Below, piece by piece: positions 9,450 through 42,000 of a DNA stretch of 64,000 bases; position 1 is the stretch's first letter, and every line of letters starts with the position of its first letter. The notes below the pieces were generated by a model. That model was not told the origin of the DNA, did not search any database, and saw only the letters and a list, made by a program, of their open reading frames with translations. The DNA is taken from positions 1,736,001 to 1,800,000 of the forward strand of contig OZ076409.1 of assembly GCA_964187785.1 (NCBI GenBank). Direction: 5' to 3'. A program made the translations under genes and the position numbers. Source of the DNA: Amphiscolops sp. MND2022 (lineage: Eukaryota).

Positions 9450-9764
9450 AAGAAATCAATGACGTCATAACGTCATTGACCGAGAAAGAAACGAAACGTA
9501 AAAATAGAAGCTTTTAATATGAGTTTCAACCAATCACCGCGCAGCAAGTAAACTTTCCATTCCCCGACTTGAGACGCACCGAAACGAAAGCGGAAAAACC
9601 GACCAATAAAATTTCGATGAAAATTACGAAAGGAAAGAACTCGAAACGTTCATTTGTCGTCCAAACCTGCAGCTTGACCAGCATAAAATTCAGAATATTC
9701 TCACCGCGCAATTTTTCATCAAGCAAGAAATAATCTCAAAAATTCCCCCGTCACAGTTACGAAA
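9450..9764. promoter_or_regulatory. Putative bidirectional promoter between the divergent accessory genes
   Basis: Lies between the minus-strand gene start and the plus-strand ATG 9765; TGACGTCA at ~9460, CCAAT at ~9530 and ~9603. Confidence 0.4.
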
Positions 9765-10636
9765 ATGAACGGCTACTCCTTAGTCATTGACATTTCATCA
9801 GACGAAGGAATGACCAGCACGCCAATCAAGACAGTGCCCGCTAATATGGTCGGAAAACTAAATATAAGCGACTCATCACTAGAAGCATGGCGGTCCTCTG
9901 ACGCCGAACTGGACTCAACTTTTGAAACAGACCGAGACGTAAAGAAAACGGAACCCACACCCAAAAAGAAAAAGCTCACTAAAGTTTCATTTAATCTGCC
10001 GCCCGCAAGAGGCTCAGTTTCGGACTCCGACAGTTACTATGAGGAGCCAGAATCACCATGCCAGTCCTCTTCGTTGAAACCTGCAATGCCGTTAAAAGAA
10101 AAATTCAACATTCCTCAGTTAGGAAATGAAAGAGCACCGGAAACGATCAAAACGGGGAATAAACACGAGCTATCAGTAATGGAGCTGGAAGCTGCATATG
10201 ACCTAGACATAGAAGACCGCAACTACTTTGCGGCTGTGGACCGTGGTAGGCACGCACCGAAGATAGCTCCTCTGCTAAAAAAAACCGTTACCCTAACAGT
10301 CCCCTGAATGATCTAAATGAGAAAAGCAAGCCGCCCGAAATTTCTCCTGAAGAAATGCAATATCTGGAAAAAATGGTACTCGATCTAGAAGAAGAGGAGA
10401 AGAAAATCGAATACATGAAAGCGGGAAGAGGACGTGGCCCCCACCAAGTGCGAAAATACATCAGCCGCCCTTCAATTGTAGTGAAAAAAGAAATCCCGCA
10501 TTGCCACGGTCTACCGTTGTCTCTTGCTTCAAGAGGGGCCCTGTCACGACCCGCTCCCGGTCGTAATTTTACTTGCTGCTCAGGGATACCAGGATTCGGC
10601 AGAGGTCGCGGACAAGGGCAAAGTAAATACTTTTGA
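9765..10636 (+). pseudogene. Sense accessory ORF (Ser/acidic N-terminus, basic stretch, RGRG-rich C-terminus) split by one frameshift
   Basis: ORFs 9765-10307 and 10355-10636 overlap in open frames around the A-run at ~10277-10285; PKKKKL and GRGRG motifs. Confidence 0.55.
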
Positions 10637-17291: not shown

Positions 17292-20200
17292 TGTTGTAGT
17301 CAAAAACACTGAGCTAACAAGAATTGAATTTTATCGAATCAACTGTAGTATGTAAAATCAACTTGATGCAACGTTTTTCATTTGTGTAAATTCGACGACG
17401 TATAAAACAGGTACTTTATTAAATTTTTGACAATGTTTATCAATTAAACGTTAGCATCGTTCTTTTTTATTTTTGACCTTGGCCAATGGCCTCGGCCACA
17501 CCTGCCTCACTACGGGATAAAGTTCGTACTATCTAAATGTAATTATGTTTACGGTACAGATGTTACTAACAGAAAAGTTTGGGTTAAAGCTACCGCCGAA
17601 AAGATTGTTATAAGAGAATGTTTACAGGAACATGTACTAAATATATTGTATGTGTTTATGTTCAGTTTCAGATTCTGATGGTTTCTAATTGTCACCTATT
17701 CATCAATTTCTTTCTGGGGCATTACTTCAAAGTTGAGGATAGCTTCTAACTCCCTTCGAATTTGTTCTTCTGTTTGCGACTCGTTAATTTGCGCCGCTCC
17801 CTCTGGCTCCTCGATGATTTTCCATAACATTTTATACGTACCAGTCTGGGCGTCGTTATGGTCGTTGGCTTTGGCGTGAATTGTTTGTCAGTAGTTTTTT
17901 CTGTACTTTCTTCACTTGTTGTTTCTTGTTCTATGTTTTCGTTGTCTTCGTCAGAAGAGCTATCAAGAATGTCCATATTTTTGTCTGGTAATCCCGCCAG
18001 GGATTTTCTCGGTTTTATCTGTTTTCTTGGAGAGCGGTTTGTTTTGGTGGGATGCGTGTTTTGTAATCCTTTGCTGCAAAGAATTTATGTGGTTTGTTAA
18101 CCTCATTTTCGCTTCTTTCTTCGGCGTCTTTTAGTGCTGCTACTTTTCTCTCCAATGAATGGCTGTTTCCTCTTTTTGTGATGCGCTTTTTTTGGCAAGG
18201 TCTCGTTTTGATAGCACTTGGTGTCTTCTGTTTGTCTCCACTGTGACGGTGTGGCTCGATTCGGAAACGATGTTCCCTGGCGTTTTGAATTGGCCTTTAA
18301 GTTTTGTGTTTTGGGTTCAATCTTATGAGGAAGATCGTGGAGTCATCGTCCTTTGGAAGTTCGTCTGGAGAGAGCATCTGATTTTAGTCGTTTTCTAAAC
18401 AGTGTTTTGGTCTCTCAGTTATTATTTCTTTACGGTATTTGCAATACGACTAAACACCTGTTTGAAGGGGGTATTCTTATTGGCCGCCGCGGCCGTTCTT
18501 AGAGCGAATAAGAGACGCGCTAAACCTGCGTTTCCTTTTTCGGTGATAATTGTTTTATCGGCCCTTAATCTCTCATTAATGGTTCTAATTAATCGTTCTA
18601 CTTTACCATTTCCGCGGTGGTAGTAAATTGAACATTCGATATGCAGAATGAATTGTTCTTGGCAAAATTATTTAAACACTTCGCCGCGAAAGATAGTTAA
18701 GGAATCCGTGCGGATTCTTTTTGGAATACCGAATTGTGCGGCGTGTGTGTGTGTTTAGAAAGTTTACGACCCGTTCTGTGGTAGGTTTTGCTACAAGCGC
18801 GGCGTTCGGCCAAGACATTGTGGGCAGGACTGTCCCAGTAGGACGATATCACCACATGTCTGCTACTGCTTGTAGCATCGAGTCACGTCCTGGATGACCC
18901 CAGTGAAGGAAGGTTCCAAAAATTGGCTTTGTGAGCTCTTCTGGAATGACTATCTCATCCCCTGTAGATGAAATCGTTTTTGTCCAATCGGAATTCGTTG
19001 AACCTCTGTTGCCAAACTTTCGGTAGTTTGTTTATCGTCTGTTAGTTGTGGTTTTTTAGAACGTCGATAATTGATTTCAATAGTGGGTTGTGTTCGTACG
19101 TCCCTGCCAGGATGTTTTCTCCAATCCGTTGAATGCTGGAGTTGAGGGGAATTGTCGAGGTTTTATCTGTTATTGCGAGAGTTCTAGGTCTTCGGACCGG
19201 CTGTTTGATTGCGATTTCATGCAGTATGCGTGTCTCGCTTCAATCGCGCTTGTTTGCCAAGACAATTTGTTCGCTGAGTGCGTCTTTAAATGTTTGCTTT
19301 ATTGATGGCGTAGCGTCACGTTCGTTCACACCTTCGTTGGTTAAATTCTCGCTCGCATCGCGATGTGTGTGTGCGTTTAGAAAGTTTACGACCCGTTCTG
19401 TGGTAGGTTTTGCTACAAGCGCGGCGTTCGGCCAAGACATTGTGTTTTTGATTTGCAGAAGTCGCCGCGGAATGTCGCCTGATTCGTCAGGAGTGAATTC
19501 GTTCATTCTGAAACATCATTATCAATGAAACCTTCGTCCCATTATGTACTTGATTTTACAGATTTTTCATTTATCGGTGATGGGGTTCGAGACAAATAAT
19601 CAGCGATGCCTAACGTTCTGTCCGGTCCGTGTATTACCTCAAAATCAAAGGGATAAAGACCATCTACCCACCGTGTGAGCCTGCTAGAGTATGTCTTATT
19701 CGCCTTTTGTCCCTTTAATTCTGTTGCTAATGCTTTATGGTCTGTTGTTATTTTGAATGGGACTCCGTACACGTAGCTGCGAAAATATTCAACTGACCAT
19801 ACTATCGCAAATATTTCAGGTTCATTTATGGAACATTTTGATTTTAATTCAGTCAAAAAGCGTGATGCCAATGAAATTGGTTTCCACTCGTTGTTTTCTT
19901 CTTTCTGTAATGCAGCTCCCAGCCCAGACTTATTTGCATTGCAAATGATCCCCAAGGGGCTTTGTCGTTTGAAGTGATTCAGCATGGTTGCTTTCCTAGT
20001 TTCTTCATTTACTGTTTCACCCCAGAAATTTTTCACCCCAAGACTTTTCTTGTTCTTCACCCCAATTCTAATCATTACCTTTCTTTATTATATTTCGGAA
20101 TTGAAAGCACAGCTCTGCTAAATTGGGGATGAATTTGTTATATTGGTTAACGACGACCAGGAACGATCTGAGTTTTTTTAAGTTTGTTGGTTTCCACTCA

Positions 20201-22410
20201 AATTTGTCCGCTGCGGATGTGAACTTTTCTAATTTCAAACATATGTTTGCTTCGACGAGTCTTTTCAATACTTTTTTTACTTTCTTGATGTGTTCATCTT
20301 CTGTTCCTTGTGTGACATCAAAAATATCATCTATAAAAGCAAGTGTATTTGTGATACCTGCCATTGTTAAGTCCATCATTCTTGGATATTATGTAGGCAT
20401 GGTTTTGAGACCGTAGAACCCTGTTATGAATCTGTAAATTCCTGTCGCCGCGCCCCCGATTACTTGGAAGTTGCATTGTCGTGACGTGGCTTCGCTCAGT
20501 TCTACTTGTCCGTGTGCATAAGTCAAATCCAGTGCAGTCAAACAGGTCTTCCTTGGGCGTTGTTCCACATGTTCTGCAATCATAGCCATTAATTTGTCCA
20601 GACTCGGCCTTGTGTTTTTATCCTTAACAACAATTTTATTCAATTCCCTTGCATACAGGGCTATTTTGACGCTCCGATGTTTCTTGACGGTTATCTTTGT
20701 GGGCTGTAAGAAGACATCCTGTTTGATGTCCTGTACTTTAACATTTTGGCCTTCTTGCAATAGCCGATTTATTTCCCTTTTTACGGGTTCTTGTAGTTGG
20801 ATTGGTGCGCGGCGGCCCTTCTGTTGTTTTGTTACCGTTCTTTCGTGGAGCCTAGCGTGTATTATATGATATTTTATTCTACCCTTTCTAGCAAACAGGT
20901 CGGGGAATTCCGCCTGCATTTTGTTTACTAATAGACATGCTGGCAGTGTTTTAGTTATACATTTTACTGCATTGAAAAACTTAGTTTTCGTTCGATGCGA
21001 TACTGTAAATTTTTCAACCATTCTCTGCCGAGAAATGACTTTGCTCCCGGTCGTGCCACCAAGATTCTCGCTTTTCTTATGTATTTGTCGCCCACCTCCA
21101 TACATAAAAAATGTATCCCAGTAGATCCCGAATCGATCATTTGACAAATTGTTTTTCGATTTATTTTGCCTTTCATCATGAATAGGGGTGATTCACCACC
21201 ATCGATGCCAAGAACGTATTGTTCTTCTTTTTCTTGTTCGTCATTTTTGTCTGATTCATCATCAACCCAATTTACCCGCCGCGGTGGTTGTTTCTGCGAA
21301 GTTTGTGGTTCTTGCTGTTTTCGGCACACACGACCATTGTGACCCAAAAATCCACATTTGTTACATTTCTTGCCTATTGTGGGCACCCAGAAATTCACAT
21401 TTGTTACATTTCTTGCCTATTGTGGGCATACCTTCAGATGCTGTATTGAGAAATTTTCTGTTCCACAATGTAAACAGTCCTTCTTTTTCGTTACGACGCA
21501 TATGGGTTCACTCTTTATCGAGACTTTGGTTTATCCCTACAGTTTTTGGCGTAATGTGCCCTCCTCGTACCCAATTGGGAAATCCAATGCATCTTTTGGG
21601 GATGCTTTCGGTTCTGTACATAGTTTCTTTTGTACAGCCAGGTTCTTCATATTGAGAATGAAAATATCGTGAACGAAGCTTTCTGTTTGAGCCTCAAAAT
21701 TACATTCCGCCGACGCCATTGCGTTCATTGAGTGCCAGAATGGCTCCCATGTCTTTGACGGCATTTGTTTCCTGGATAGAAACCTGAAACGATCTAGTGT
21801 TCCGTTCCGTTTTGAATCGAAAGTACTAATGCAATTGTCCAGTAATACTTGCAGTGTTATTTCGGATATTTTGACTTTTGGATATTTGTCGGAAAATGTC
21901 TTCCGTGCCGCAGCCCCCAGAGATAAGAAAAAGTACGCTGACGCACTTACGCTCTGCCACTGGGTGGTCAAGATTTTTCTTTAATGCTTTATTTCAATCA
22001 GCCTCATTTATCACAGTCCTCAATACCTCTGCAATAGAGATTGAATGATTTGCAGTCATCGCCACGGCGAACAAATCGCACCATTTCTTCCATTCGATGC
22101 TTGGCTTTTGGTGAGGGTCCTTCCAATACAGCGCCAAACAGATACTGCTGATTTCCCATTTGTGGTTTTTCCAACGTCAGTATCAAAAGCTCGCAGCGCC
22201 ATGTTATAGTCAAAAACACTGAGCTAACAAGAACTGAATTTTATCGAATCAACTGTAGTATGTAAAGGCAACTTGCTGCAATGGTTTTCATTTGTGTCGT
22301 TTCGACGACCTATGAAACAGGTACTTTTTTAAATGTTTAACAATTTTTATCATTTAAATGTTAGCATCGTTCTTTTTTGTTCTTGACCTTGGCCAATGGC
22401 CTCGGCCACA
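17292..22410 (-). mobile_element. Complete decayed Ty3/gypsy element (Mag-like)
   Basis: 209-bp TG..CA LTRs at 17292-17500 and 22202-22410 (~20 mismatches by hand count); TSD gggtt/gggtc; PBS TGGCGCTGCGAGC (tRNA-Ser-like) at 22189-22201. Confidence 0.93.
17746..22190 (-). pseudogene. gag-pol of the decayed gypsy element
   Basis: Zinc knuckle CNKCGFLGHNGRVC, protease IDSG, RT fragments (LDLTYAHGQ, FIDD), RNase H (TDHKAL, ADYLSR), integrase remnants at ~18450-18950; many stops and frameshifts. Confidence 0.9.
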
Positions 22411-22430
22411 GGGTCACACGATGAAGAGAT

Positions 22431-22960
22431 ACAAGCCGAGAACAGCCAAAGTTGGCGCCATATCTAAGGCTCAAAATTCAAAAGAGGGGTTCCTTCGGGC
22501 TTTGTGAAACTCCAGCTGGTTGCAAAAAATGAAAAAAAAATTGAAGGGGAGACCCTTTGGAAAATTTTTTAAAATTAGATTTTTGAACACTGTCACAGTG
22601 CCGAAAAATGTGAAAGGGGGGACCCTTTGCGATTTTTGACATCCATTGTGTTGCAAAATATCGAAACAAATGAAGGGGGGACCCCTTGGTGCAATCCAAA
22701 AAGTTTCAAAAAGTCTCATAGTGCCGAAAAAAAGTGGGGCTATGGGGGCATCCTTAGTGTGTTTTCGAGGCTCTGGACGTCTGTTTTGTTTTTTCTTTTC
22801 GTTTTGGACGCACTTCTGAGGTTGGAGTTGCTGAGTTTTGAAGTTGTTAAGGTTTGACGTTGTTGAATAAATGAACAAAAAAGTGAACCTTACGCGTCCA
22901 AAAAAAACTACGCACTGTAATAGTCGGGCTCATTCTCTACTAAAATGCGCCGACTAAAAA
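22431..22960 (-). mobile_element. Helentron/DINE-1-like non-autonomous element, family A
   Basis: acaagccg...aagttggcgccatatctaaggctc at one end, agtcggg...gcgccgactaaaaa at the other; close homologue at 57014-57558. Confidence 0.75.
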
Positions 22961-24638: not shown

Positions 24639-25517
24639 CTAGGTGAGCCAAAAAAAAGGAACGCATAAAAATTTTTGAGCTCTCAAAATGTCGAAAAACT
24701 TGTCAACAATCTTTTCAAAACAACTTCTAACGCCAAAATTCAGCTTGTCAATAATTCAATTTGACAACATTGGTTTCACACATTCGACTGTCAAAGAACT
24801 TTCACACAGACTGGTAAAGATGTCTATAGATCGTTTCAAAACGTTCGCGAGATTAGAACTAATTAATCGTCGCTGAAAATACCTTTTGTGAAGTCAAAAA
24901 ATAAAAGTCGACGGCACCAGTTAACTGTCCTATCTTTTTGAGCATTCGAATGAACGTCTTGTACAGCAACACGATTTCGAATGTCGCGATATTTCAAAAA
25001 ACGGTGTGACGTGGCATTGGAGACAAGTCGTCTGGCTGTAAGCAGAAGGTCAGAAAGCCGGAATTTTGAGTTTCGATTAACGCGGCCCAGAAGCTGACGC
25101 TTTTATTTTCTTGTGAGTACAGATTTTCGACCCAATTTGAATTTTTCTGCCCAATACGTCGCTTCAGGATTCCTCTAAGTCTTGACTCGGAAATCGAGAA
25201 AATCCAAGCAAGTGGTGAATTTGCATAAATCCGGGTTTGCATCTTTAAAACGGTATATCGATTTTGCAAGGCCATCAGATGTGCCTTTGCCTCGCATATT
25301 TTCAGAAATTGTTATAATAGCATCGCTAATTAAAAGACTGGTACCTAGTCTCGCAAACTTTTTGAAACGATCTATAGATTTTCTTTAAAACATGCTCAGT
25401 TTTTAGATGTGATTACGTAATGAAAGCTCCATTCTGAATGCTCGAACAAAAAGTGAATTCTTACTCGCCAATTGTTTACCAATATTACAATTTTTCTTCG
25501 TTTCTTTTTTTGGTTCA
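24639..25517. mobile_element. TA-flanked MITE (Tc1/mariner-like) whose right TIR is split by the LTR element (remainder at 41345-41354)
   Basis: Left TIR ta|CTAGGTGAGCCAAAAAAAAGGAACG; right TIR tttttttggttca[insertion]gttcacctac. Confidence 0.8.
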
Positions 25518-27362
25518 TGTAAGAAAATCCAATTCGGGCTTGAAGAGAGTTTTAACAGACAAAAGTTTAACAGACAAAAGGTTGTTTTAGTGAGTTAGCT
25601 AATTCTGTTGAAGTTACTGTCAAGTTCTCTCTCCAGGTTTGCTGTATTGGCTCGCGTCGTCCGAAAACTTCGAGTAATGGAGTAATAAAATTACTTCTTT
25701 ATCGCAAAAATAACACTGGGCCCCTCAAATAAGTCAAACTAACTAATATTCATCAATCGAAGAAGCAATCTCCGATTCAACCAACTACAGGTTTATCACT
25801 TGTACGATTTCTATCTAGCTCCTGGAGCTAAACGACAACGTAATCTTCTAGAAGTGTCTCTTATCTCCGCGAGACTCAACTTGCTTCTAGCTCTATTACT
25901 CGGTTGTGTATATTCACCGCCTCGATAATGTTTATTCATCAGCTGCATTTTTGTTGTTTCGATGTAGACCTTTAAGTTAAATGCTTTTGACTTCATGTAT
26001 CTCTATTCCTTTTATGACATGGCAGCACCCTAGTTATATTTCGTCCAGACTCACTTCGCCGCCAACGACAAATACTTCAGCAATGGTTGTGCAAAGTTCA
26101 CACTTCAATAATAATTCAAGTCACCCAAAATATTTCTAATATCGGACAATCATTCAATGAACTTCACATACATGGTATACATGTTTTCTACGTAAAAAAG
26201 GTACTTTTCTCTTATTCAGAGCGGTGCATAGCGAATTCTCTCGCCTCACTGAAATGCATAAGTTGTCACGCAAACGGCGCTGATTCACATGTTTTATCGT
26301 AAGTTTCTCTATATGTTCGGGGATTGCATCTAAAATGACCTTGAGGTCCATCGTTGACCTTGAAATTATTCGTCCTCATCCAATGTTGCTACATGCCAAA
26401 TTAAGCAGTCCTAGCGTTAATGGTCTTCTAGTTACATGATGTGAGTATGGTTTGCTTACTCAAGGCGGTTGTCCCCGGATGGGCTATGAATACGATTCCA
26501 TTCGTGTTAGTAATCGACTACATTCGTTGTCACGGTTCGTTGCAGATATTACAAGCCAAAGTCAAATGTCATTCATCGGTCGACCCCGCGTGTCCGATCC
26601 CGCGTGCCTTAAACGAACATTACTCCTCGCGTGGTGGACCAATTAATGTATCTTTGATGGATATTACTTAGGGTTGCTAAGTGAACATCTTAGGTACGTT
26701 TCATGATCCTGGTGTCATCTGTTGGTTATTTACATAACAATCGGGGTTTATTCACATAGGGTCCGTGCAACTCCTACGCGCGTCGTAGTGTTGTGAAATT
26801 ATGCGCAAACGGCTCAATATCCTATGGGCTATCAATTCCGTATATAACATGAATTAGTCCGCGTTTCGCCGACGAGTTCGCGAGGGTCAACCAAGGTCAC
26901 TTTCGGTTCTAATAGCCCGGCACTGGGGGATTTACGGGGTCGGCTGCTCCGAGTCGAAAGTTGAGTTAACACCTGTTATATATCCATGCCAAGTTTCAGC
27001 GCGATCAGACAAGTCATTCTCAAAAAAGCAGGTGGCCTTTTTTTGGGATGCTTCTTCTTTTTGTATAATGTACAAACTTTGTGAATTTTGGTCCCGGGGC
27101 GCTCGATTTTAGCTTAGTTAATTCGAACAATCTCATTGTTCACGTCATTCAATAACTTGGTAAATTTGCCTTGGAAGTTTCGTTTATTATGTGAACACCT
27201 TGTTTGCCAAATAAGTCATATTGAAACACGCTATGGTCAGCCTTTTCAGCTGTTTTTACTATTACGGCTGTCTAAAGATATGATTAACGTAGTTCTGTCT
27301 ATCGTATGTACTTAGCGCAAATTCAATGAAGTTTTGCATACGCCAAAAACTAAAATTCCACA
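25518..27362 (-). repeat. 3' LTR (1845 bp)
   Basis: Colinear with 39490-41344; plus strand begins TGTAAG and ends CCACA. Confidence 0.92.
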
Positions 27363-27718
27363 ATCTTCTTTTCTGGACTTTTATTCTCCCGAATAAATTT
27401 ATCGTCGTTGGCTGAATCGTTGTAGGGTTACATTTCATTGTTATGATGGGTTGGGCATTGGTCAAAACAATTTCCAATAAAAAAGTAACACTGATCGTTG
27501 ATAATGTCTACAGTATTCATGAACTAGTATATTATCAAAATAAGAGAAACAAAAAAAATAGGCAATATAAACATCATATAAAGATAAAAGCACCGAAGGC
27601 TCAAAACAAAATGTTTAAAATTTCGAAAATCCTGGATAACAAATATTGTTGAATACCACTATCTAACACTACATTTTGTTTTCCTCTGTCACTGAGTAGG
27701 CCTCTAAAAACTCGCCAT

Positions 27719-28694
27719 ATGAGCCATGAGTTCTTCGAGCGCCCCGCTCTTCGCATTGAGATAACCCGCCGTTCTTTGGTCATCCCGGAGGAGCGCCAGC
27801 TGATTTCTTCACTCCTCCGTTCTCGGACGTATCACGACTTCTCGCTGAATACGGGCTGCGGTGGATACTTCGACTGTCATGGGTGCCCGGTCGAAGAGTC
27901 AGAAGATTCTTACTACGCGGACATACACATTCCAGTTCGGGAAGTACCAATTGCTAAGATCCATCCCATCAAAACCATGAATGCAATATTGTGAACTTTC
28001 GGACTATACAAATACTCAACAAACTCGAAACTTTATTGCTATCCGTACCAACAAAAATGCTTATATTCAAACGTTTTGTACCCGTGAGGTTCCATTTGAC
28101 GGGCTGTTCCGAGATCTGTTTAGAAAGCAAACAATTGTTTCTTGTAGTTCTATTACTTTCAGCAACATTCCGGTACGGGTTTTCAATGGTTTTCCACTTG
28201 CTTGCTTATGTATTCACTATCAGAAGTACGTCAGAGAGTCGAAAATTGTATGAGGTGGATTTGGACTTTTCGCCGTTGAACGTTTTGTTTACTCAGCAAT
28301 TTTACTCTGTTACCATAGTTGGTTTTCGCCAACTTAACATTTCGGAACTGCTAAATTGTACTCTTACATCTTCTCAATTTCGTGATCCGTGAAAGCAATG
28401 ATGCATTAGAAGATCGTAATACGAATGCAATGGGCTTCCCTTTACTATCGGAGGGTTTTCTCTATGCAGAACATGAGTGTATACGGGGGTCATGACATCA
28501 AAATAGTTTTGGAGGAAGGTGAACAGCTGTTGCTAGAATATCTGTTGCCTGGCTGGGTCGAATTTACCCTATTTCTGCTCAGTCTCTCTATTCCAGATGA
28601 AAGGGTCGAGGGTCAGACGTTTCGGCTCCGATTGGCACAACGAACGCTTCAAAGAGCTTTCAAAAAGACGTCGACTCTGGACTTTTTATCGTAA
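27719..28694 (+). CDS. 3-exon gene antisense to the LTR element (~170 aa, unknown function)
   Basis: Exons 27719-27943, 28163-28225, 28470-28694, all phase 0; acceptors tttcag and tatgcag, donor GTACGT; first donor (GTACCA) is weak. Confidence 0.55.
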
Positions 28695-31600
28695 AAATAT
28701 AACAAACTCTATCATTTTCACCCGAATTTCATCTTTCGTCGCTTCATCCTTACCACCTACCACAAATTTTTATTTCTTCTTTCTTTTTGGCAATTAGCAG
28801 TGGAATAGTTCTACCGAGTCTTCTCTAAATGTTCGAGAAAAAGTTTTGATTGTTTAGGGCGGTCTATCCGTGGTGTGATAAACAACAAGAAGAGTAGGAC
28901 TAGGGAAGGGATTATGAAAAAGGGGATGGGTATGCTCATGGGCACAGTTTTAGAAAATGGTTAGGGTCGGCGGTTTGGGATGAACAAAATTAAAAAGCAT
29001 AGTTTCAACGTTTATAAAAATGGTCTGTTGGTTTGGGTCCTCATAAGAAAAATAGGCACATACCGTTCCCGAACTACTTGCTACATATTTTTGGGCTGCG
29101 AACAACAAAAACTTATATCTTCAAAACTTTAATATCGTTCCTCTAAAAGACAAATGCTATGCGATGCATATTTTCAGCTAGCTTGGTCACAATAATTTGA
29201 ATAAAAAAACTAATTCCGGGAAAAATGAAGTTTAGGTTTGTAATTAAAAACTAATCTTTTCCCACTAGTTTTCGTTTACAATCTTCGCAGTCCTTGTTAG
29301 GCATCCTGGTTAGGCATCTCCTGAACGCGTATGTCTAGTTTCCATCTTCCGTGTTTCTTGTGACAGACCCAGCTGCAGGAATCAGCACTTGCCACAGCCA
29401 CACTTTGCCTTTGTTCCGCACCAGCCTCGCAGTGTTCACTGTCGCAGACACGTCTTGAAACAGGCTTCGTCTGGGAGTCGCACGTGGTTCGTGGTTGGCA
29501 GCACAACTTCCCCTCTGGATCTGTCATCACCTTGCAGGTTTCATTAAATTTACTTGTGTCTTCGTCATATTAACGTGTTTTTCCTCTGTCGTAGATTTTC
29601 CTCGCAGTCCTGTGCTCATCGCTCATCGTGGGGCACTTTGATGGAAACCGATCATCACCCTCTGAGTTCCATGCTTTGAGGTGACCCTCGCTCGCTTGGC
29701 CATTCATCGATCTACAGTTTGTTTCTCGTGGTTCACGCACTGATGCCATCTTAGTGTCATGGCAAAGATGCTTTGGACAACTCCTCGAGAGATTTATGAA
29801 CATCATTCGTGAGGGCGTGTTGAGTGACTTCCCTTCTAGAAATTTTCCACGTGGATTGTCTCGAGAGACTCCACCCAGCTTCTCACTTACTTCTCAGTGC
29901 CTGTTCTCTAAGCCAACGATGAGAACACTCGTTTTCAGACACTTCAGTACGTTCACTTGCACCCACAAGGCAGTCATGAACCACAGAAATGAAGTCCAAA
30001 CTTTTCTCTTGAGTCTTGCCCTGCTTGAATTTGTCAGTTTAATATCGGCTCTGTGGTCTGGCGCTCACTGCGAAGCTGCCCTCTTGACTCGAGAACTCTG
30101 TCCGGGTCTCCTTGCTGTTCATCTTCAACAAACAAGGTCGGAATACCGTGCGACGGCATTTCTGCTTCCGCTGTTTGCACATACATGCAGTTCAGATTGT
30201 CTTGCTTCGCACATCGTAGTTTCAAATCAGGTAGTTCTTCTGTGGGTTTCAAGTCACATTCCTCAGCTTGGGTGGGACATTTCCCACTTTCGACTTCCCA
30301 CGTTTCATCAGTTTTTCGCGAGAGCTCTATTCCTACTTCCAGTGAGAAAGAACATCTCTCACAAGGAAGCGTTGTTACCTCAGCACTCATTAGTTCAACA
30401 CCACCCGCAGCTGCTGCTTCATGGTTCAGTCGAACCAGTGCGCTTTCAATCAGGCCACGTGCTAGCCCATCGATGTGATTCGTCTGAACGTTTATCTCCA
30501 CATCATAATTTACCTAGGCACGTTGAATAATTGCTTCCCCAGATCTGACCAACAAAAGTGTTTTTATTAAATTTTTTTTGTACTCGTGAGGTTCCATTTG
30601 ACGGGCTGTTCTGAGATCTGTTTAGAGAGCAAACAATTGTTTCCTGTAGTTCCATTACTCTCAGCAAATTTTCGGTACGGGTTTTCAATGGTTTTCCGCT
30701 TGCTTGCTTAGGTATTCACTATCAGAGGTACGTCAAAGAGAAGAAACTTGAATGAGGTGGATTTGGATTTCTCGCCGTTGAAAGTTTTGTTTCCTCAGCA
30801 ATTTTACTCTTTTGCCACAGTTGGTTTTCGCCAACTTCACATTTCGGAACTGCTAAATTGTACCCTCACATCTTCTCAATTTCGTGATCCGTGAAAGCAA
30901 TGATGCATTAGAATACCGTAATACGAATGCAATGCGCTTCCCTTTACTAACGGAGGGTTTTCTCTATGCTGAACATGAGTGTATACGGGGGACATGACAT
31001 GAAAATTGTTTTGGAGGAAGGTGAACAGCTGTTGCTAGAATATCTGTTGCCTGGTTGTGTCGAATTTACCCTACTTCTGCTCAGTCTCCCTATTCCAGAT
31101 GAAAGGGTCGAGGGTCAGACGTTTCGGCTCCGATTGGCACGACGAACGCTTCAAAGAGCCTTCAAAAAGACGTCGACTCTGGACTTTTTATCGTAAAAAT
31201 ATAACAAATTCTATCATTTTCACACTAATTTCATCTTTCATCGCTTCATCCTTACCACCTACCAAAAATCTTTTATTGCTTCTTTCTTTTTGGTAATTCG
31301 CAGTGGAATAGTTCTACCGAGTCTACTGTAAATGTTCAAGAAAAAGTTTTGATTGTTTAGGGCGGTCTATCCGTGGTGTGATAAACAACAAGAAGAGTAG
31401 CACTAGGGTAGGGGTTATGAAAAAGGGGGTGTGGGTATGCTCATGGGCACAGTTTTAGAAAATGGTTAGGGTTGTCTGTTTGAGATGAACAAAATTAAAA
31501 AACATAGTTAAAACGTTTATGAAAAAGGTCTGTTGGTTTGGGTCCTCATCAGAAAAATAGACACAGACCATTCCCGAACAATTTGCTACATATTTTTGGG

Positions 31601-34600
31601 CTGCGAACTTTAAAAACTTTTATCTTCAAAACTTTAATATCGTTCCTCCAAAAGAAAATTGCTATGCCTTGCATAAATTCAGCTAGCTTGGTCACAGTCA
31701 TTCAAGTAAATTAACTAATTGCGGCAAAAATTTGAAGTTGAGGTTTGTAATTAATAACTAACCGTTTGTCACTAGTTTTCGTTTACAATCTTCGCAGTCC
31801 TTGGTTAGGCATCTCCTGAACGCGTATGTCTAGTTTCCATCTTCCGTGTTTCTTGTGACAGACCCAGCTGCAGGAATCAGCACTTGCCACAGCCACACTT
31901 TGCCTTTGTTCCGCACCAGCCTCGCAGTGTTCACTGTCGCAGACACGTCTTGAAACAGGCTTCGTCTGGGAGTCGCACGTGGTTCGTGGTTGGCAGCACA
32001 ACTTCCCCTCTGGATCTGTCATCACCTTGCAGGTTTCATTAAATTTACTTGTGTCTTCTTCATATTAACGTGTTTTTCCTCTGTCGTAGATTTTCCTCGC
32101 AGTCCTGTGCTCATCGCTCATCGTGGGGCACTTTGATGGAAACCGATCATCACCCTCTGAGTTCCATGCTTTGAGGTGACCCTCGCTCGCTTGGCCATTC
32201 ATCGATCTACAGTTTGTTTCTCGTGGTTCACGCACTGATGCCATCTTAGTGTCATGGCAAAGATGCTTTGGACAACTCCTCGAGAGATTTATGAACATCA
32301 TTCGTGAGGGCGTATTGAGTGACTTCCCTTCTAGATTTTCTCCACGTGGATTGTCTCGAGAGACTTCACCCAGCTTCTCAATTACTTCTCAGTGCCTGTT
32401 CTCTAAGCCAACGATGAGAACACCCGTTTTCAGACACTTCAGTACGTTCACTGGCACCCACAAGGCAGTCATGAACACAGAAATGAAGTCCAAACTTTTC
32501 TTTTGAGTCTTGCCCTGCTTGTGTTTGTCAGTTTAATGTCGGCTTTGTGGTCTGGCGCTCACTGCGAAGCTGCCCTCCCGCCTCGAGCACTCTGTCCGGG
32601 GTCCCCTTGCGGTTCATCTTCAACAAACAAGGTCTGAATACCGTGCGACGGTTTTTCTGCTTCCGCTGTTTGCACATACATGCAGTTCAGATTGTCTTGC
32701 TTCACACATTGTAGTTTCAAATCAGCTAGTTCTTCTGTGGGTTTGAAGTCACATTCCACAGCTTGATGGGACATTTCCCACTTTCGACTTCCCACGATTC
32801 ATCAGTTCTTCGCGAGAGCTCTATTCCTACCTCCAGTGAGAAAGAACATCTCTCACTAGAAAGCGTCGTTCCCTCAGCACTCATTTGTTCAACACCACCC
32901 GCAGCTGCTGCTTCATGGTTCAGTCGAACCACTGCGCTTTCAATCAGTCCACGTGCTAGCCCATCGATGTGATTCGTCTGAACGTTTATCTCCACATCAT
33001 ATTTTACCTAGGCACGTTGAATAATTGCTTCTCCAGATCTGACCAACAAAAGTGCATTAATTCAATTTTTTTGTACTCGTGAGGTTCCATTTGACGGGTT
33101 GTCCCGAGATCTGTTTAGAGAGCAAACAATTGTTTCCTGTAGTTCTATTACTTTCAGCAAAATTTCGGTACGGGTTTTCAATGGTTTTCCACTTGCTTGC
33201 TTAGGTATTCACTATCAGAAGTACGTCAAAGAGTCGAAACTTGAATGAGGTGGATTTGGATTTCTCGCCGTTGAAAGTTTTGTTTACTCAGCAGTTTTAC
33301 TCTTTTACCACAGTTGGTTTTCGCAAATTTAACATTTCGGAACTGCTAAATTGTACTCTTACATATTCTCAATTTCGTGATCCGTGAAAGCAATGATGCA
33401 TTAGAATATCGCAATACGAATGCAATGGGCTTCCCTTTACTATCAGAGGGTTTTCTCTATGCAGAACATGAGTGTATACGGGGGACATGACATCAAAATA
33501 GTTTTGGAGGAAGGTGAACAGCTGTTGCTAGTATATCTGTTGCCTGGCTTGGTCGAATTTACCCTATTTCTGCTCAGTCTCCCTATTCCAGAGGAAAGGG
33601 TCGATGGTCAGACGTTTCGGCTCCGATTGGCACGACGAACGCTTCAAGAAGCCTTCAAAAAGACGTCGCCTCTGGACTTTTTATTGTAAAAATATAACAA
33701 AGTCTATCATTTTCATATTAATTTCATCTTTCATGGCTTCATCCTTACCACCTACCACAAACATTTTATTGCTTCTTTCTTTTTGGTAATTCGCAGTGGA
33801 ATAGTTCTACCGAGTCTACACTAAATGTTCAAGAAAAAGTTTTGATTGTTTAGGGCGGTCTATCCGTGGTGTGATAAACAACAAGAAGAGTAGCACTAGG
33901 GTAGGGGTTATGAAAAAGGGGGTGTGGGTATGCTCATGGGCACAGTTTTAGAAAATTGTTAGGGTCGGTTTGGGATGAACAAAAATAAAAAGCATAGTTT
34001 CAACGTTTATAAAAATGGTCTGTTGGTATGGGTCCTCAAAGAAAAATAGACACAGACCATTCCCGAACTATTTGCTACTTATTTTTGGGCAGCGAACAAC
34101 AAAAACTTTCATCTTCAAAACTTTAATATCGTTCCTCCAAAAGACAAATGCTTTGCCATGCATATTTTCAGCTGGCTTGGTCACAATCATTTGAATAAAA
34201 AAACTAATTCCGGGAAAAATGAAGTTTAGGTTTGTAATTAAAAACTAATCTTTTCCCACTAGTTTTCGTTTACAATCTTCGCAGTCCTTGTTAGGCATCC
34301 TGGTTAGGCATCTCCTGAACGCGTATGTCTAGTTTCCACCTTCCGTGTATTTTGTGACAGACCCGGCTGCAGGAATCAGCACTTGCCACAGCCACACTTT
34401 GCCTTTGTTCCGCACCAGCCTCGCAGTGTTCACTGTCGCAGACACGTCTTGATACAGGCTTCGTCTGGGAGTCGCACGTGGTTCGTGGGTGGCAGCTCAA
34501 CTTCCCTTCTGGAGCTGTCATCACCTTGCAGGTTTCATTCAATTTACTTGTGTCTCCGTCATAATAACGTGTTTTTCCTCTATAGTAGATTTTCCTCGCA

Positions 34601-37600
34601 GTCCTGTGCTCATCGCTCATCGTGGGGCACTTTGATGGAAACCAATCATCAACCTCTGAGTTCCATGCTTTAAGGTGAACTTCGCTCGCTTGGCCACTCA
34701 TCGATCTACAGTTTGTTTCTCGGGGTTCACACACTGAAGCCGTCTTAGTGTCATGGCGTATATCCTTTGGACAAATCCTCGAGAGCTTTCTGAACATCGT
34801 GAGGGCGTACTGAGTGACTTCCCTTCTAGAATTTGTCCAGGTGGATTGTCTCGAGAGACTTCACCCAGCTTCTCATTTACTTCTCAGTGCCTATTCTCCA
34901 TGCCAACTATGAGAACACCCATTTTCGCGTCTGGACTATCAATGTTGAAGAGCATCATCTCAACTCCACGGTTTCCCTTGTGTCGAGTCCAACATCGATC
35001 ACTCTGTTCGAAGGCGTAGGGTGTCTTGGCTTCTCTCCATTTCGTGGCTTTGCAGCGGCTTCCGGAGGAAAGGCAAGGCCTGTGCTGCACTCAGTCTTCC
35101 TCACACATCAGTGACCCAGCTCGTCCCCAATTAACAAACGACGGCCAAAGCGCTTGATCCCTTCCATTGGAACATCTGGGTAAAGCGTTCCAAGGCTTCT
35201 GACGGTCAGACACTTCAGTACGTTCACTTGCACCCACAAGGCAGTCATGAACCACAGAAACGAAAACCAACTTTTTCTCTTGAGTCTTGCCCTGCTTGCG
35301 TTTGTCAGTTTAATATCGACTTTGTGGCCTGGCGCTGACTGCGAAGCTGCCCTTCCGACTCGAGCACTCTGTTCGAGGTCCCCTTGCGGTTCATCTTCAA
35401 CAAACAATATCTGAATACCATGCGACGGCATTTCTGCTTCCGCTTTTTGCACATACATGCAGTTCTGGTTGTCTTGCTTCACACATTGTAGTTTCAAATC
35501 AGCTAGTTCCTTTGTGGGTTTGAAGTCACATTCGACAGCTTGGGTGGTACATTTCCCACTTTCGACTTCCCACGTTTCATCAGTTCTTCGCGAGAGCTCT
35601 ATTCCTACTTCACTTCCAGTGAGAAAGAACATCTTTCACTAGAAAGCGTCGTTCCCTCAGCACTCATTAGTTCAACACCACCCCCAGCTGCTGCTTCATG
35701 GTTCAGCCGAACCATTGCGCTTTCAATCAGGTCACGTGCTAGCCCATCGATGTGATTCGTCTGAACGTTTATCTCCACATCATACTTTACCTATGCACGT
35801 TGAATAATTGCTTCTCCAAATGTGACCAACAAAAATGATTATATACAAGTTTTTTACTCGTGAGGTTCCATTTGACGGGTTGTTCCGAGATCTGTTTAGA
35901 GAGCAAACAATTGTTTCCTGTAGTTCTATTACTTTCAGCAACATTCGGGTACGGGTTTTCAATGGTTTTCCACTGGCTTGCTTAGGTATTCACTATCAGA
36001 AGTACGTCAAAGAGTCGAAAATTGTATGAGGTGGATTTGGATTTTTCGCCGTTGAAAGTTTTGTTTACTCAGCAATTTTACTCTGTTACCACAGTTGGTT
36101 TTCGCCAACTTAACACTTCGGAACTGCTAAATTGAACTCTTACATCTTCTCAATTTCGTCATCCGTGAAAGCAATGATGCATTAGAATATCGCAATACGA
36201 ATGCAATGGGCTTCCCTTTACTATCAGAGGGTTTTCTCTATGCAGAACATGAGTGTATACGGGGGTCATGACATCAAAATAGTTTTGGAGGAAGGTGAAC
36301 AGCTGTTGCTAGAATATCTGTTGCCTGGCTGGGTCGAATTTACCCTTTTTCTGCTCAGTCTCCCTATTCCAGAGGAAAGGGTCGAGGGTCAGACGTTTCG
36401 GCTCCAATTGGCACGACGAACGCTTCAAAGAGCCTTCAAAAAGATGTCGCCTCTGGACTTTTTGTCGTTTAAAAAATAACAAATTCTATCATTTTCATCC
36501 TAATTTCATCCTTCATTGCTTCATCCTCACCACCTACCACAAATATTTTATTGCTTCTTTCTTTTTGGCAATGCGCAGTGGAATAGTTCTACCGAGTCTA
36601 CTTTAAATGTTCGAAAAAAGTTTTGATTGCTTAGGGCGGTCTATCCGTGGTGTGATAAACAACAAGAAGGGTAGCACTGGGGTTGGGGTTATGAGAAAGT
36701 GGATGTGTGTATGCTCATGGGCACAGTCTTAGAAATTGGATAGGGTCGGCGGTTTGGGATGAAAAAAATTAAAAAGCATAGTTTCAACAGGTATAAAAGG
36801 ATCTGTTGGTTTGGGTCCTCTTAAGAAAACTAGACAAAACCATTCCCGAACTATTTGCTAAATATTTTTGGGGTGCGAACAACAAACACTTTTATCTTCA
36901 AAACTTTAATATCGTTCCTCTAAAAGATAAATGCTGTGCCATGCATGAATTCAAGTAGCTTTGTGACAATCATTCAACTAAAAAACATATTTCAAGCAAA
37001 AAAAATGAAGTTTAGGTTTGAATTAAAAACTAATCTTTTGTCACTAGTTTTCGTTTACAATCTTCGCAGTCCTTGGTTAAGCATCTCCTGAACGCGTATG
37101 TCTAGTTTCCACCTTCCGTGTTTCTTGTGACAGACCCAGCTGCAGGAATCAGCACTTGCTACAGCCACACTTTGCCTTTGTTCCGCACCAGCCTCGCAGT
37201 GTTCACTGTCGCAGACACGTCTTGCAACAGGCTTCGTCTGGGAGTCGCACGTGGTTCGCGGGTGGCAGAACCACTTCCCCTCTGGAGCTGTCATCACCTT
37301 GCAGGATTCATTAAATTTACTTGTGTCTCCGTCATAATAAGGTGTTTTTCCTCTATCGTAGACTTTCCTCTCAGTCCTGTGCTCATCGCTCATCGTGGGG
37401 CACTTCGATGGAAACCAATCATCACCCTCTGAGTTCCATGCTTTAAGGTGACCTTCGCTCGCATGGCCATTCATCGATCTACAGCTTGTTTCTCGGGGTT
37501 CACGCACTGATGCCGTCTTAGTGTCATGGCATAGATCTATTGGACAAATCCTCGAGAGTTTTTTGAACATCATTCGTGAGGGCGTACTGTGTGACTTACC

Positions 37601-38598
37601 TTCTAAAATTTGTCCACGTGGATTGTCTCGAGAGATTTTACCCAGCTTCTCATTTACTTCTCAGTGCCTATTCTCCATGCCAACTATGAGAACACCCATT
37701 TTCGCTTTTGGACTATCAATGTTGGAGAGCATCATCTCAACTCCACGGTTTCCCTTGTGTCGAATCCAGCATCGATCACTCTGTTCGAAGGCGTAGGGTG
37801 TCCCTGGCTTCTCTCCATTTCGTGGCTTTGCAGCGGCTTGCGGAGGAAAGGCAAGGCCTGTGCTGCACTCAGTCTTCTTCACACATCAGTGACCCAGCTC
37901 GTCCCCAATTAACATACGACGGCCAAAGCGCATGATTCCATCCATTGGATCATCTGGGTAAAGCGTTTCAAGGCTTCTGACTGTCAGACACTTCAGTACG
38001 TTCACTTGCACCCACAAGGCAGTCATGAACCACAGAAATGAAGTCCAAATCTTTCTCTTGAGTCTTGCCCTGCTTGCGTTTGTCAGTTTGATATCGGCTT
38101 TGTGGTCTGGCGCTCACTGCGAAGCTGCCCTACGACTCGAGCACTCTGTCAAGGGTCCCCATGCGGTTCATTTTCAACAAACAAGGCCTGAATACCAGCG
38201 ACGGCATTTCTGCTTCCGCTGTTTGCACATACATGCAGTTCTGATTGTCTTGCTTCAAAACATTGTAGTTTCTAATCTGCTAGTTCTTCTGTGGGTTTGA
38301 AGTCGCATTCGACAGCTTGGGTGGGACATTTCCCACTTTCGACTTCCCACGTTTCATCCGTTCTTCGTGAGAGCCCTATTCCTACTTCCAGTGAGAAAGA
38401 ACATCTTTCACTAGAAAGCGTTGTTCCCTCAGCACTCATTAGTTCAACACCACCCGCAGCTGCTGCTTCATGGTTCAGTCGAACCACTGCGCTTTCAATC
38501 AGGTCACGTGGTAGCCCATCGATGTGATTCGTCTGAACGTTTATCTCTACATCATACTTTACCTTGGCACGTTGAATAATTGCTTCTCCAGATCTGAC
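28049..38598. repeat. Tandem array of 4 units: 28049-30549, 30550-33043, 33044-35826, 35827-38598
   Basis: Recurring junction ...tgac|caacaaaa; MQWASLYY and MEINVQTNH ORF variants recur in the units; units 3-4 have an extra ~290 bp. Confidence 0.97.
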
Positions 38599-39300
38599 AT
38601 TTAATACTGAAGAACGCTCAGCAGCTTCCTTGCTTCACGTCGAAGTTTCTCGAAATGGCATCAATTTGCAAATTGTTTCAGGCAGTGCGAGGCTCGCATG
38701 GTTTCCGCATGCAAGTCTCACTATCTTGGTTTCGTAAAAATGTCTAAGAGCTTCTTCCAGTGTCAGCAGTTCGTACGGACACTCATAGTCATCGTCACTA
38801 TACAACTCGCTCAAGATCTCTTCGTTTTCTTTCTCTGACCACTCGTCGTCACTGGAATTACTCCACCATTCGCTCCGTCGAAACTGGTTAAACGCAGTAC
38901 CTTCGTCATCTCCAACGAGATTATCACAATCGTCGTCGCTGTGTTCACATCCGAAGTGTGACGCTTTTCACGCTGATTTTGACCTCGCTACTCGTCCAGC
39001 GTTTGTGTACGCACAGTTTTCTGATTGCATTTTTCCGTTCTAGCATTGGGCAGCATTGGAACTGTTCACGTCAGCAACGTCAGAAGCTCCAGAAGAAAAC
39101 GTTCTTTATTAGGTTCAATCTGAGAAACTCCAATCACTTCGGATGAGAATGTCCGAAACACTAGGTTCTTCCTCCAACTCTACTTCAACAAAGAACTTGG
39201 CTTCCAAAAAGGCATTGTATATAGCTCCCATGAGAGATTCCGATATCTAATGGCAACACTTCTAATAGTCCCATTTCAACTGATCGGCCGTGGCCAAGAA
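37055..39300 (-). pseudogene. Degenerate sense ORF following the PBS (gag position); its 3' part is repeated in each array unit
   Basis: ORF fragments (acidic SDDEWSEKENEE.., EINVQTNHIDG.., MFKKLSRICP..) chain together with few stops/frameshifts; no recognised domain. Confidence 0.5.
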
Positions 39301-39469
39301 CTTCAGCAGCCACTATCTCCAACTGGGGGTATTGCTACTCGGGAACTCTCCAACATCCACTTGGTTCTATTTCTTCAGTCTCCATCTCTCAAGTTGATAT
39401 CTCTGCAAAATCCACCGTTCTCTCTAACAGAGTCCACAAACAGCCACAGTAGTATCAAAAAGAACGGGT

Positions 39470-39488
39470 AGCCCACCCAGGAGCGCCA
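39470..39488 (-). other. Primer binding site, tRNA-Asn-like
   Basis: Minus strand TGGCGCTCCTGGGTGGGCT, 1 nt inside the 5' LTR; its complement AGCCCACCCAGGAGCGCCA resembles the animal tRNA-Asn 3' end. Confidence 0.75.
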
Positions 39489-39489
39489 C

Positions 39490-41344
39490 TGTAAGAAAAC
39501 CCTATTCGTGGCTTGGAGAGAGTTTTACCTCCAATTGAAAGCTTAACAGACAAAAAGTTGTTTGAGTGAGTTAGCCAATTCTGTTGCATTTACTGTCAAC
39601 TTCTCTCTCCAGGTTCGCTCTATCGGCTCGCGTCTTCCACAAACTTCGAGTAATGGAAAAATAAAAACAAAAGTATCGCAAAAATACCACTGGGTCTCTC
39701 AAATTATCAAATCAGTCAAACTAGCTAACTTTCATCAATCGAAGAAACAATCTCCGATTCAGCCAAGTACAGGTTTATCACAGTCACGTGTTCTCTCTAG
39801 CTCACGGAGATAAATGACAACGTAATCTCCGCGAAACTCAACTTGCTTCTAGCTCTCTTACTCAGTTGTGTAAATTCAGATATATTCCAATTCCGCCTCA
39901 ATTGTGTTTGTTCATCAGCCGCATTAGTGTTGTTTCGATGTTGCCCTTTAAATTGCATGCTTTTGACTTCATGCAACCGATTCTCTTTATGACATGGCAG
40001 CGCCCTAGTTATATTTCGTCCAGACATACTCCGCCGCTAACGACAAATACTTCACTAATGGTTGTACAAAGTTCACACTTCAAAAAGACTTCAAGTCACC
40101 CAAGATATTTCTAATATCGGGACAATCCTTCAATGACCTTCAAATACATGGTATACATGTTTTTTACGCAAAAGCGGTACTTTTTCTTATTCTGAGCATG
40201 GTGCATCGCGAATTCTCTCGCCTCACTGAAATGCGTAGGTTATCACGCAAACGGCGCTGATTTTCATGTTTTATCGTAAGTTTCTCTATATGTTCGGGGA
40301 TTGCATCTAAAATGACCTTGAGGTCCATCGTTGACCTTGAAGTTATTCGTCCTCATCCAAAGTTGCTACATGCCAAATTATACAGTCCGAGGGTTAATGG
40401 TCTTCTAGTTACATGATATGTGTATGGTTTGTTTACTTATGGCGGTTGCCCCCGTATGGGTTACGAATACGATTTCTTTCTTGTTAGGAATCGACTACAT
40501 TCGTTGTCACGGTTCGTTTGAGATATTACAAGCGAAGGTCAAATGTCATTTATTGGTCGGGCCCGCGCGTCCGGTCCCGCGTGCCTTAAACAAACTTTAC
40601 TCCGCGCATGGTGGACCAATTATTGTATCTTTCATGATACTTAGGGTTGCTAGGTGAACATCTTCTGTAAGTTTCATGATCATCGGGTCATCTGTTGGGT
40701 GTTTACATAATAATCGGGGTGTATTCACATAGTGTCCGTGCTCCTCCTACACGCGTCGTAGTGTTCCGAAAATATGCGCAAACGGATCAAAATCCTATGG
40801 TCTATCAATTCCATGTATAGCATGACTGATTCCGTGTTTCGCGGACGAGTTCGTGGGGGGGGGGTCTTTTTCGACCTAGGTCAGTTCCGGTGCTAATAGC
40901 CCGGGACTGGGGGAGGTAGCGGGTCGGGTGTCTCGTGTCGAAAGTTGAGTTAACACCTGTATTATATGCATGCCAAGTTTCAGCGCGATCCGACAAGTCC
41001 TTCTCAAAAAAGGGGGTGGTCCTTTTGGGATGCTTCGTTTTTCGCATAATGTAAAAACTTAGTAAATTTTGCTCTCGGGGCGGTCAATTTTAACTTAGCT
41101 AATTCGAACAATCTCATTGTTGACGTCATTAAATAACTTGGTAGTTTTGCCTATGAAGTTTCGTTTACTATGTAAACACCTAGTTTGCCAAATAAGTCCC
41201 ATTGAAACACGCCATTGTCAGCCTTTTCAGCTCTTTTCACTTTTCCGGCAGTCTAAAGATATGATTAACGTAGTTCTGTCTATCGTGTGTACTTCGCGCA
41301 AAACCAATGGATTTTTGTAGACGCCAAAAACTAAAGTTTCCACA
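39490..41344 (-). repeat. 5' LTR (1855 bp)
   Basis: Colinear with 25518-27362, adjacent to PBS and TSD. Confidence 0.92.
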
Positions 41345-41657
41345 GTTCACCTACTTTTTTGGCATCAAAATTTCGCTCTTCAAAATTAATATTTGTAAAC
41401 AAGGCTCTGAAAGTTGTCCAGTCAATTGTTCAAAGCGGAGCTCCTATAACGTAATCAAATCTTCAACAAAAGATGTCTTGAACACTCAGTGAAATTCTAG
41501 CATCTTTACCACTCACTTTCTTTGCACTTCTGAAGTGTGAAAGGTCTTTGACATTCGAATGTGTGAAAGCAATGTTGTCGATTCGAATGATTGACAAGCT
41601 GAATTTCAACGTTGAAAATTGTTTTTCGAAACACTTTGTTTAGGAATATAACAATTT

Positions 41658-42000
41658 CCAAAAAACGGAACGTACAAACATTTTCGAGCTCTCAAAGTTT
41701 CAAATATTTGTCAACAGACGTTGGAAAACAACTGTGAACAAACGCTGCTGTCAATCATTCAAGTTAGCTTCTTTTTTCAGAAGCATAAAAAACTTTCACG
41801 TTAGAAGTTAGAAAAATAGACTGATCTAGACGTCTAGACTGTTTTTAAAAGTTCGAACTGAGTTTGGTTGCAGATGTGATTACGTAATATGATCTTCGAT
41901 CGAACAGAAAAATTGAACGATTCTCGATGCCTTGTTTACAAATAATACGATTTTAAAGACGCGAAAATTTGTTCGTTCCGTTTTTTTTTGGTTCACCTAG
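41658..42000. mobile_element. Second, shorter copy of the TA-MITE family
   Basis: ccaaaaaacggaacg...cgttccgtttttttttggttcacctag|ta; similar to 24639-25517. Confidence 0.75.

Follow-up and report, generated by a model that had tools for sequence, protein, structure and literature searches.

Do LTR retrotransposons in this genome house intron-containing genes on the strand opposite to their own, close to the 3' LTR? A preliminary description of the window (the whole 64,000-nucleotide stretch analyzed here) proposed such a gene, with three exons, in an LTR element located at 25518-41344 (element 2). Together with an antisense gene in a first element (element 1), it was taken as a sign of a recurring strategy. 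We examined the host element, the proposed exons and their relatives in sequence databases, and the other LTR elements of the window.

Element 2 and its gag-like family

Element 2 is a true LTR element that lies on the minus strand, with LTRs, target-site duplication, primer-binding site, and polypurine tract all present. Its features are the following:

25513-25517, no strand: left copy of the target-site duplication, GTTCA, with an identical 5-mer at 41345-41349
25518-27362, minus: 3' LTR, ~1.85 kb, TG...CA ends, from comparison with the 5' LTR
27363-27376, minus: polypurine tract, from sequence
37055-39366, minus: broken gag-like sense ORF, from comparison with an intact relative
39471-39488, minus: primer-binding site, starting with TGG one base from the LTR, from sequence
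39490-41344, minus: 5' LTR, TG...CA ends, from comparison with the 3' LTR
41345-41349, no strand: right copy of the target-site duplication, GTTCA, a perfect 5-bp match to the left copy

We take the primer-binding site at 39471-39488 to be tRNA-Asn-like. Of the 1813 sites aligned between the two LTRs, 227 (12.5%) are different, indicating either that this copy is old or that its LTRs were unlike from the start. Between them, the interior consists of 891 bp of unique sequence, four tandem units, and 684 bp of unique sequence. Element 2 seems to be inserted into the end of a dispersed repeat (25470-25517), and an intact end of this repeat is found again near 41990 (41935-42000).

Compared with an intact relative, the gag-like ORF of element 2 has 13 stops in ~750 aligned codons, ~3 frame changes, and a deletion of ~145 residues. 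None of the 14 frames scanned in element 2 gave a Pfam match at the cut-off, whereas RT, RNase H or integrase matches were obtained for elements 1 and 3 in the same scan. The pol with RT, RNase H, and integrase that characterizes autonomous Ty3/Gypsy elements was not found in element 2. The sense frame matched 24 unnamed ENA clusters (502 candidates; 388-971 aa, 38-69% identical), which have up to 19 members each and include proteins of up to 1005 aa. These relatives keep the gag-like ORF intact over about 830-1005 aa, an RT motif was found in none of 50 sense-ORF relatives, and the C-termini of four of the five inspected, judged from proteins only, continue into 3' sequence that the window shares. 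The family to which element 2 belongs is thus likely gag-only and non-autonomous, and its cluster sizes, with as many as 19 members, suggest that it was active recently.

The gag-like character of the sense ORF comes from a language-model feature search, in which the first 200 residues of the relatives scored 0.96 to Retrotrans_gag clusters (141 of 256 features). Gag identity was returned neither by Pfam (0 of 9 relatives at the cut-off) nor by a PDB profile search, which was empty, and the predicted fold of relative P0016 (pLDDT 28.7) was too low in confidence for use. The sense protein family (37055-39366; ENA P0009-P0032 and P0034-P0059) is an orphan family of ~830-1005 aa with a gag-like first 200 aa, an acidic middle, and no Pfam match.

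A candidate three-exon gene on the opposite strand

The proposed gene lies on the plus strand, opposite to its host element, as had been described, and 356 bp inside of the 3' LTR. Its three phase-0 exons also have the positions, translation, and in-frame joins that were claimed for them; they are stop-free and amount to 75+21+74 codons. The model comprises the following parts:

27719-27943, plus: proposed exon 1, 75 codons, GC 55%, with a Cys/His cluster; single copy, ENA relatives 62-69% identical
27944-28162, plus: proposed intron 1, 219 nt, with few stops and a weak donor, GTACCA
28163-28225, plus: proposed exon 2, 21 codons
28226-28469, plus: proposed intron 2, 244 nt, donor GTACGT
28470-28694, plus: proposed exon 3, 74 codons and stop, hydrophobic stretch followed by a basic C-terminus
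28989-29205, plus: possible polyadenylation signals ATTAAA (28989) and AATAAA (29200), weak, in AT-rich DNA

The acceptors end with TTTCAG (intron 1) and TGCAG (intron 2), the second with just 53% pyrimidine over -20..-4. All three frames of exon 2 are open, and its frame is thus not self-evident. Intron 2 has 4, 3, and 3 stops in its three frames. No match to a TATA consensus was found upstream of exon 1. Splicing of intron 2 alone was considered and rejected, since the resulting frame ends two codons into exon 3. The predicted product contains four Cys in 170 codons; its exon 3 part includes a moderately hydrophobic stretch with a 19-residue hydropathy of 1.45, and the last 25 residues include six K/R and one D/E.

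Coding potential was assessed by base composition. GC content dips at codon position 2 by 0.18 in exon 1 (reached by 3 of 300 stop-free shuffles) and by 0.18 in exon 3 (1 of 300), and no shuffle out of 300 reached the combined dip of the two exons. In both long exons GC1 and GC3 exceed GC2 in the proposed frame only. Among real sequences, a dip of at least 0.18 was present in 4 of 74 non-coding stretches free of stops and in 9 of 42 blocks known to code, which gives a likelihood ratio for coding of ~3.5 per exon for a statistic that was picked only after the exon and intron GC values had been seen. General three-base periodicity was not significant (37/300 and 47/300 shuffles). GC change points were located at 27677-27713, just before the ATG, and at 27888-27985, bracketing donor 1; the signal was weak for exon 3. 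Because the exons had been selected as open, three further results are inflated: the G+C contrast between exons (250/513, 49%) and introns (177/463, 38%; Fisher p=0.001), the absence of breaks in 170 exon codons when 3.6 were expected at the sense-ORF rate (~16 per 750 codons; p about 0.03), and the chance tests. In these, three-exon models that reached at least 150-170 codons and had signals no worse than the observed ones were obtained from 1-3 of 400 dinucleotide shuffles and from none of 60 real tiles. The tuned thresholds behind these counts were set by reference to the model itself, once a stricter run had failed to recover it at acceptor 2, and the pyrimidine window was then -14..-4. 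An honest range for the chance of an equally good model is about 0.3-17%.

The region might instead hold no gene and represent non-coding DNA from the 3' part of a gag-only element, with exons that are open by chance and bounded by chance GT and AG dinucleotides. When looser signals were accepted, 33 of the 400 shuffles and 10 of the 60 real tiles did contain a model, and a 225-nt window of 54% GC is present in one LTR too. Frame-specific Markov scores (11.9 and 14.2 against a null mean of 12.9) were no better than those of non-coding open stretches, under a periodic model that has no power beyond stop absence. Chance frames, however, do not account well for the dip at GC2 that both long exons show precisely in the frame proposed for them, or for the deficit of stop triplets on the plus strand at 27719-28691 (29 against 43.5 +/- 4.3 expected), which was found neither on the minus strand nor in the LTRs or downstream. 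These features support an antisense coding history of exons 1 and 3, and they make the presence of an antisense gene in element 2 probable.

The tandem array and relatives in databases

The preliminary description drew further support from recurrence of the exon 2-3 region in a tandem array. The array, at 28047-38598, is a four-unit, 10.5-kb tandem amplification inside element 2:

28047-30548, minus: unit 1, 2502 bp, 3' part of the gag-like ORF plus exons 2-3
30549-33041, minus: unit 2, 2493 bp, having lost its exon-3 acceptor and carrying a TACTAAC (30945) seen in no other unit
33042-35824, minus: unit 3, 2783 bp
35825-38598, minus: unit 4, 2774 bp

The units are 5.8-8.4% apart, compared with 12.5% between the LTRs, which makes them younger than the LTR divergence. 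Units 1 and 2 lack a 278-bp piece that is present in units 3 and 4, exon 1 is single copy and missing from units 2-4, and the exon-3 frame of unit 4 extends three codons beyond the stop of the other units. The splice signals of exons 2-3 had been reported from all four units. This holds for acceptor 1 and donor 2 (4/4 each) but not for acceptor 2 (3/4), whose AG is lost in unit 2. The TACTAAC presented as a canonical branch point occurs in one of four units, namely the one that lost the acceptor, the other three having TACTATC, and it cannot be counted as support. Variable sites among units made up 29/244 (11.9%) in intron 2, 8/63 (12.7%) in exon 2, and 22/225 (9.8%) in exon 3. A dN/dS comparison among the units gave 0.86 for exon 2 and 0.79 for exon 3, with 15 of 21 changes in exon 3 non-synonymous, and hence no signal of selection. 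The units are neutral duplicates, with introns as conserved as exons. Because introns vary no more than exons, the recurrence of splice signals in the array, where exon 1 is present only once, is uninformative.

Protein searches were made for relatives of the antisense region. The search with exon 3, which covered proteins of at least 131 aa only, gave one match (P0001) among 85 candidates; exon 1 gave four matches among 1.84 billion representatives, one of which (P0003, a 4046-aa bacterial repeat protein) was rejected as a repeat artefact; and a profile search gave five matches among 2246 candidates. In all, six ENA clusters of 1-2 members were obtained, as against 24 clusters with up to 19 members for the sense ORF. 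They are unspliced gene calls on copies of the family with 61-81% identity, apparently decayed or partial. None of 25 candidate stretches in viral contigs gave a related locus, and the sole locus among the matches listed, L001 from the JGI metagenomes, was a 23-residue match judged to be due to chance. No distant homolog was found in these searches, and exons 1 and 3 and five related proteins had no Pfam match, including to TRP28 (PF04195). A language-model feature search with exon 3 gave no lead (best score, 0.77), and the predicted fold of the read-through protein P0006 (pLDDT 34.7) was too low in confidence for use.

No exon-intron contrast in conservation was seen among the ENA relatives. 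Exon 1 is 58-72% identical in three ENA pairs, compared with 57-69% past the donor, and exon 3 is identical to P0001 at 58 of 74 residues, compared with 21 of 27 just upstream. A conservative-substitution test had no power, as it could not distinguish any of the 7 sense-ORF controls from neutrality (p<0.05). P0001 ends at the same last residue as exon 3, and the Gln before exon 3 is kept (1/1). Donor 1 is of the GTNC type in every copy; its Val codon is kept in four of five ENA clusters, and the donor is lost in P0005. The lone cluster spanning exon 2 has a frame change inside exon 2 and, judging from the protein, an Ile at donor 2, so that this donor appears to be missing, both of which may reflect decay or an assembly error. 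The ATG of exon 1 is not seen in any of the three clusters that reach that end, with Ile in P0007/P0033 and other starts in P0002 and P0004/P0006. That the start codon is not seen in relatives, like the absence of a selection signal among units and relatives, is what would be expected of chance open frames; set against the codon-position and stop-triplet signals, it leaves a non-coding origin of the region somewhat unlikely in our judgment.

Several of these proteins read through the positions of the proposed introns. P0002, P0004/P0006, and P0007/P0033 continue for 40-135 codons past donor 1, in frame and collinear, and P0001 extends in frame for 44 codons ahead of exon 3; relative to the read-through proteins, the window copy changes frame twice in intron 1. 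The gene could accordingly be a single unspliced antisense ORF of about 175 to 325 codons that begins with exon 1, with the introns representing decay breaks of an old copy. Six breaks in 325 codons would fit the decay rate of the sense ORF, and the introns are stop-poor (17 stop triplets against 25.1 +/- 3.3 expected; p about 0.02 in one of 16 tests). Gene callers and the length filter of at least 131 aa, however, favor read-through proteins. Moreover, that frame is interrupted by four stops in intron 2, as expected of non-coding DNA; in intron 1, the frame that is read through shows no dip at GC2 (its value was reached by 259 of 300 shuffles); and all six breaks would have to fall within 155 intron codons. 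We consider a single unspliced ORF quite improbable.

The 170 unbroken codons, despite LTR divergence of 12.5%, could also mean that the antisense gene was kept by the host (domestication) while gag decayed, or that a host-gene fragment was captured. The same sequence is nevertheless found in at least six other clusters of the family, the changes among units (exon 3 included) are mostly non-synonymous, and no host-gene homolog was present among the 1.84 billion representatives, which makes either version very improbable.

Candidate antisense genes in this window and antisense genes of known elements

Element 1, a Gypsy element on the plus strand, has a predicted multi-exon antisense gene behind pol (5311-9179, minus strand). 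Four of its introns have canonical donors, namely GTAAGT, GTAGGT, GTGAGT, and GTAAGT; they are 85-146 nt long and T-rich (45-56%), in contrast to the introns of element 2 (219 and 244 nt; 32% and 35% T). The last three junctions join stop-free exons in frame, the last exon containing one in-frame stop, and one exon includes a C2H2-like motif (Pfam E 0.03, below the cut-off). The first three junctions were guesses that broke the frame, leaving 11 and 5 stops in two of the exons, and they were rejected. As predicted from sequence, the spliced antisense gene of element 1 is a convincing and much stronger case than that of element 2. The two elements are unrelated, as had been stated: beyond a single match of 20 nt (E 0.38) and another of 24 aa (E 0.07), blastn and tblastx showed no similarity between them. 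Two sense frames of element 1 (206 and 128 aa; 9687-10636, plus strand) are arranged head to head with its antisense gene, the first having no Pfam match. A third LTR element (~17292-22410, minus strand) is a Gypsy element with 209-bp LTRs that are 90% identical and a broken pol, and no antisense stop-free run of more than 122 codons was found in the 2 kb adjoining its 3' LTR. The claim of a recurring strategy thus comes down to three elements in one window, of which one is strong, one probable, and one negative for an antisense gene.

Other features were noted elsewhere in the window. A 170-bp palindrome with no spacer and arms 98% complementary is located at 58849-59018. Minus-strand open frames at 54751-55905 (384 aa) and 59876-60841 (321 aa) have no Pfam match; the only PDB match of the latter, to an HMG-box protein, is weak (E 0.45). 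MITE-like dispersed repeats are abundant in both orientations (22416-22960, 43310-43580, 48118-51980, and 55928-57556) and presumably resemble repeats of acoel flatworm genomes.

With a probability of roughly 55%, we favor the reading that element 2 is a decayed copy of a gag-only family that carries a spliced antisense accessory gene, with predicted coding sequence in exons 1 and 3. In favor of a spliced gene, element 1 of this window carries a clear one, in which two of six guessed donors are also non-consensus. The exact three-exon path (27943>28163, 28225>28470) is the most likely join, although we would give it slightly less than even odds; other splice paths that use exons 1 and 3 add a little to the overall figure.

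Such a family would borrow reverse transcriptase and integrase from an autonomous element. A separate promoter, located at the inner edge of the 3' LTR or close to it, would drive the antisense gene. Introns that are antisense to the genomic RNA are not removed by the spliceosome. Those proposed here could survive retrotransposition because, being antisense, they would be invisible to the spliceosome in that RNA. The ~170-aa product, with a Cys/His cluster and a hydrophobic and then a basic helix, would most likely be a small nucleic-acid-binding regulator. That it aids expression, export, or escape from silencing of the element RNA, by analogy with the nuclear GENE23 of Grande, is an unlikely proposal as it stands. 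After insertion, DNA-level amplification likely produced the four copies of a 2.5-2.8-kb piece that comprises the 3' part of gag and exons 2-3, and units 2-4 would be exon-1-less debris.

The retrovirus HTLV-1 has the antisense gene hbz, and CERV of Cer1 is reportedly made from the sense strand. Database searches found no similarity of the element 2 antisense product to CERV or hbz. CERV is described as a small accessory protein of a C. elegans LTR element (PMC10309623), and a retroviral antisense promoter has been placed in the 3' LTR (PMC7264820). According to the portions of these sources considered here, what CERV and hbz share with the proposed gene is that they are small LTR-element accessory proteins with regulatory roles, made from spliced or antisense messages, which is a functional analogy only.

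Antisense ORFs between pol and the 3' LTR (aORF-3R) have been described for the plant Gypsy elements Grande (gene23), RIRE2, Retand, and PvRetro13 (PMC7264820, PMC11963269), and the GENE23 protein of maize Grande is nuclear (PMC7264820). Element 2 shares with them an antisense coding region just inside the 3' LTR, whose function is not known (PMC7264820). Like element 2, Retand has internal tandem arrays, with units of 8-100 bp as opposed to 2.5-2.8 kb, and it also has non-autonomous members. Unlike aORF-3R, the element 2 model has no TRP28, Smc domain, or any other Pfam match. In the sections of these papers that describe them, aORF-3R are ORFs rather than multi-exon genes, whereas the element 2 model has three exons. 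The host differs too, being a eukaryote with spliceosomal-type introns that is probably an animal, possibly an acoel. In fungi, brtn is an additional antisense gene of Boty-like Gypsy elements of Botrytis and Sclerotinia (Zhao et al. 2011; PMC8365987, PMC7264820). It occupies the same antisense position in an element that carries gag-pol, whereas element 2 has no pol; our searches found no sequence similarity between the two, and element 2 has no six-cysteine cluster (four Cys in 170 codons). TR-GAG elements of plants are non-autonomous LTR elements with a single sense ORF that are mobilized in trans (PMC8704663). They have two LTRs, a gag-like N-terminus, and no pol (PMC8704663), a layout that the family of element 2 probably shares. 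The GAG of the TR-GAG example has 562 aa, compared with about 830-1005 aa in the element 2 family, and the part of that description available to us mentions no antisense gene (PMC8704663). Bdelloid elements express extra ORFs from spliced messages, and the corresponding part of their description includes no antisense gene (PMC5408684).

We found no report of a spliced antisense gene in an animal LTR element among the titles and the beginnings of abstracts obtained from open-access text. The layout is known from plants and fungi, and what would be new here is an antisense gene that is an orphan, is probably spliced, and belongs to an element likely to have gag only. In plants and fungi, the function of the antisense genes of LTR elements has yet to be settled (PMC7264820). 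If the favored reading is true, the retention of such a spliced gene by a family with gag only, beside the multi-exon one of an unrelated pol-bearing element, would extend this layout to another host group and would narrow the function of such genes to something that does not need pol in cis. We suggest, tentatively and at less than even odds, that unrelated LTR lineages in this probably animal genome independently gained intron-containing antisense genes and that a family without pol keeps a spliced orphan gene beside gag. If so, the antisense gene would serve the RNA or particle of the element directly and would be worth more to the element than enzymes of its own.
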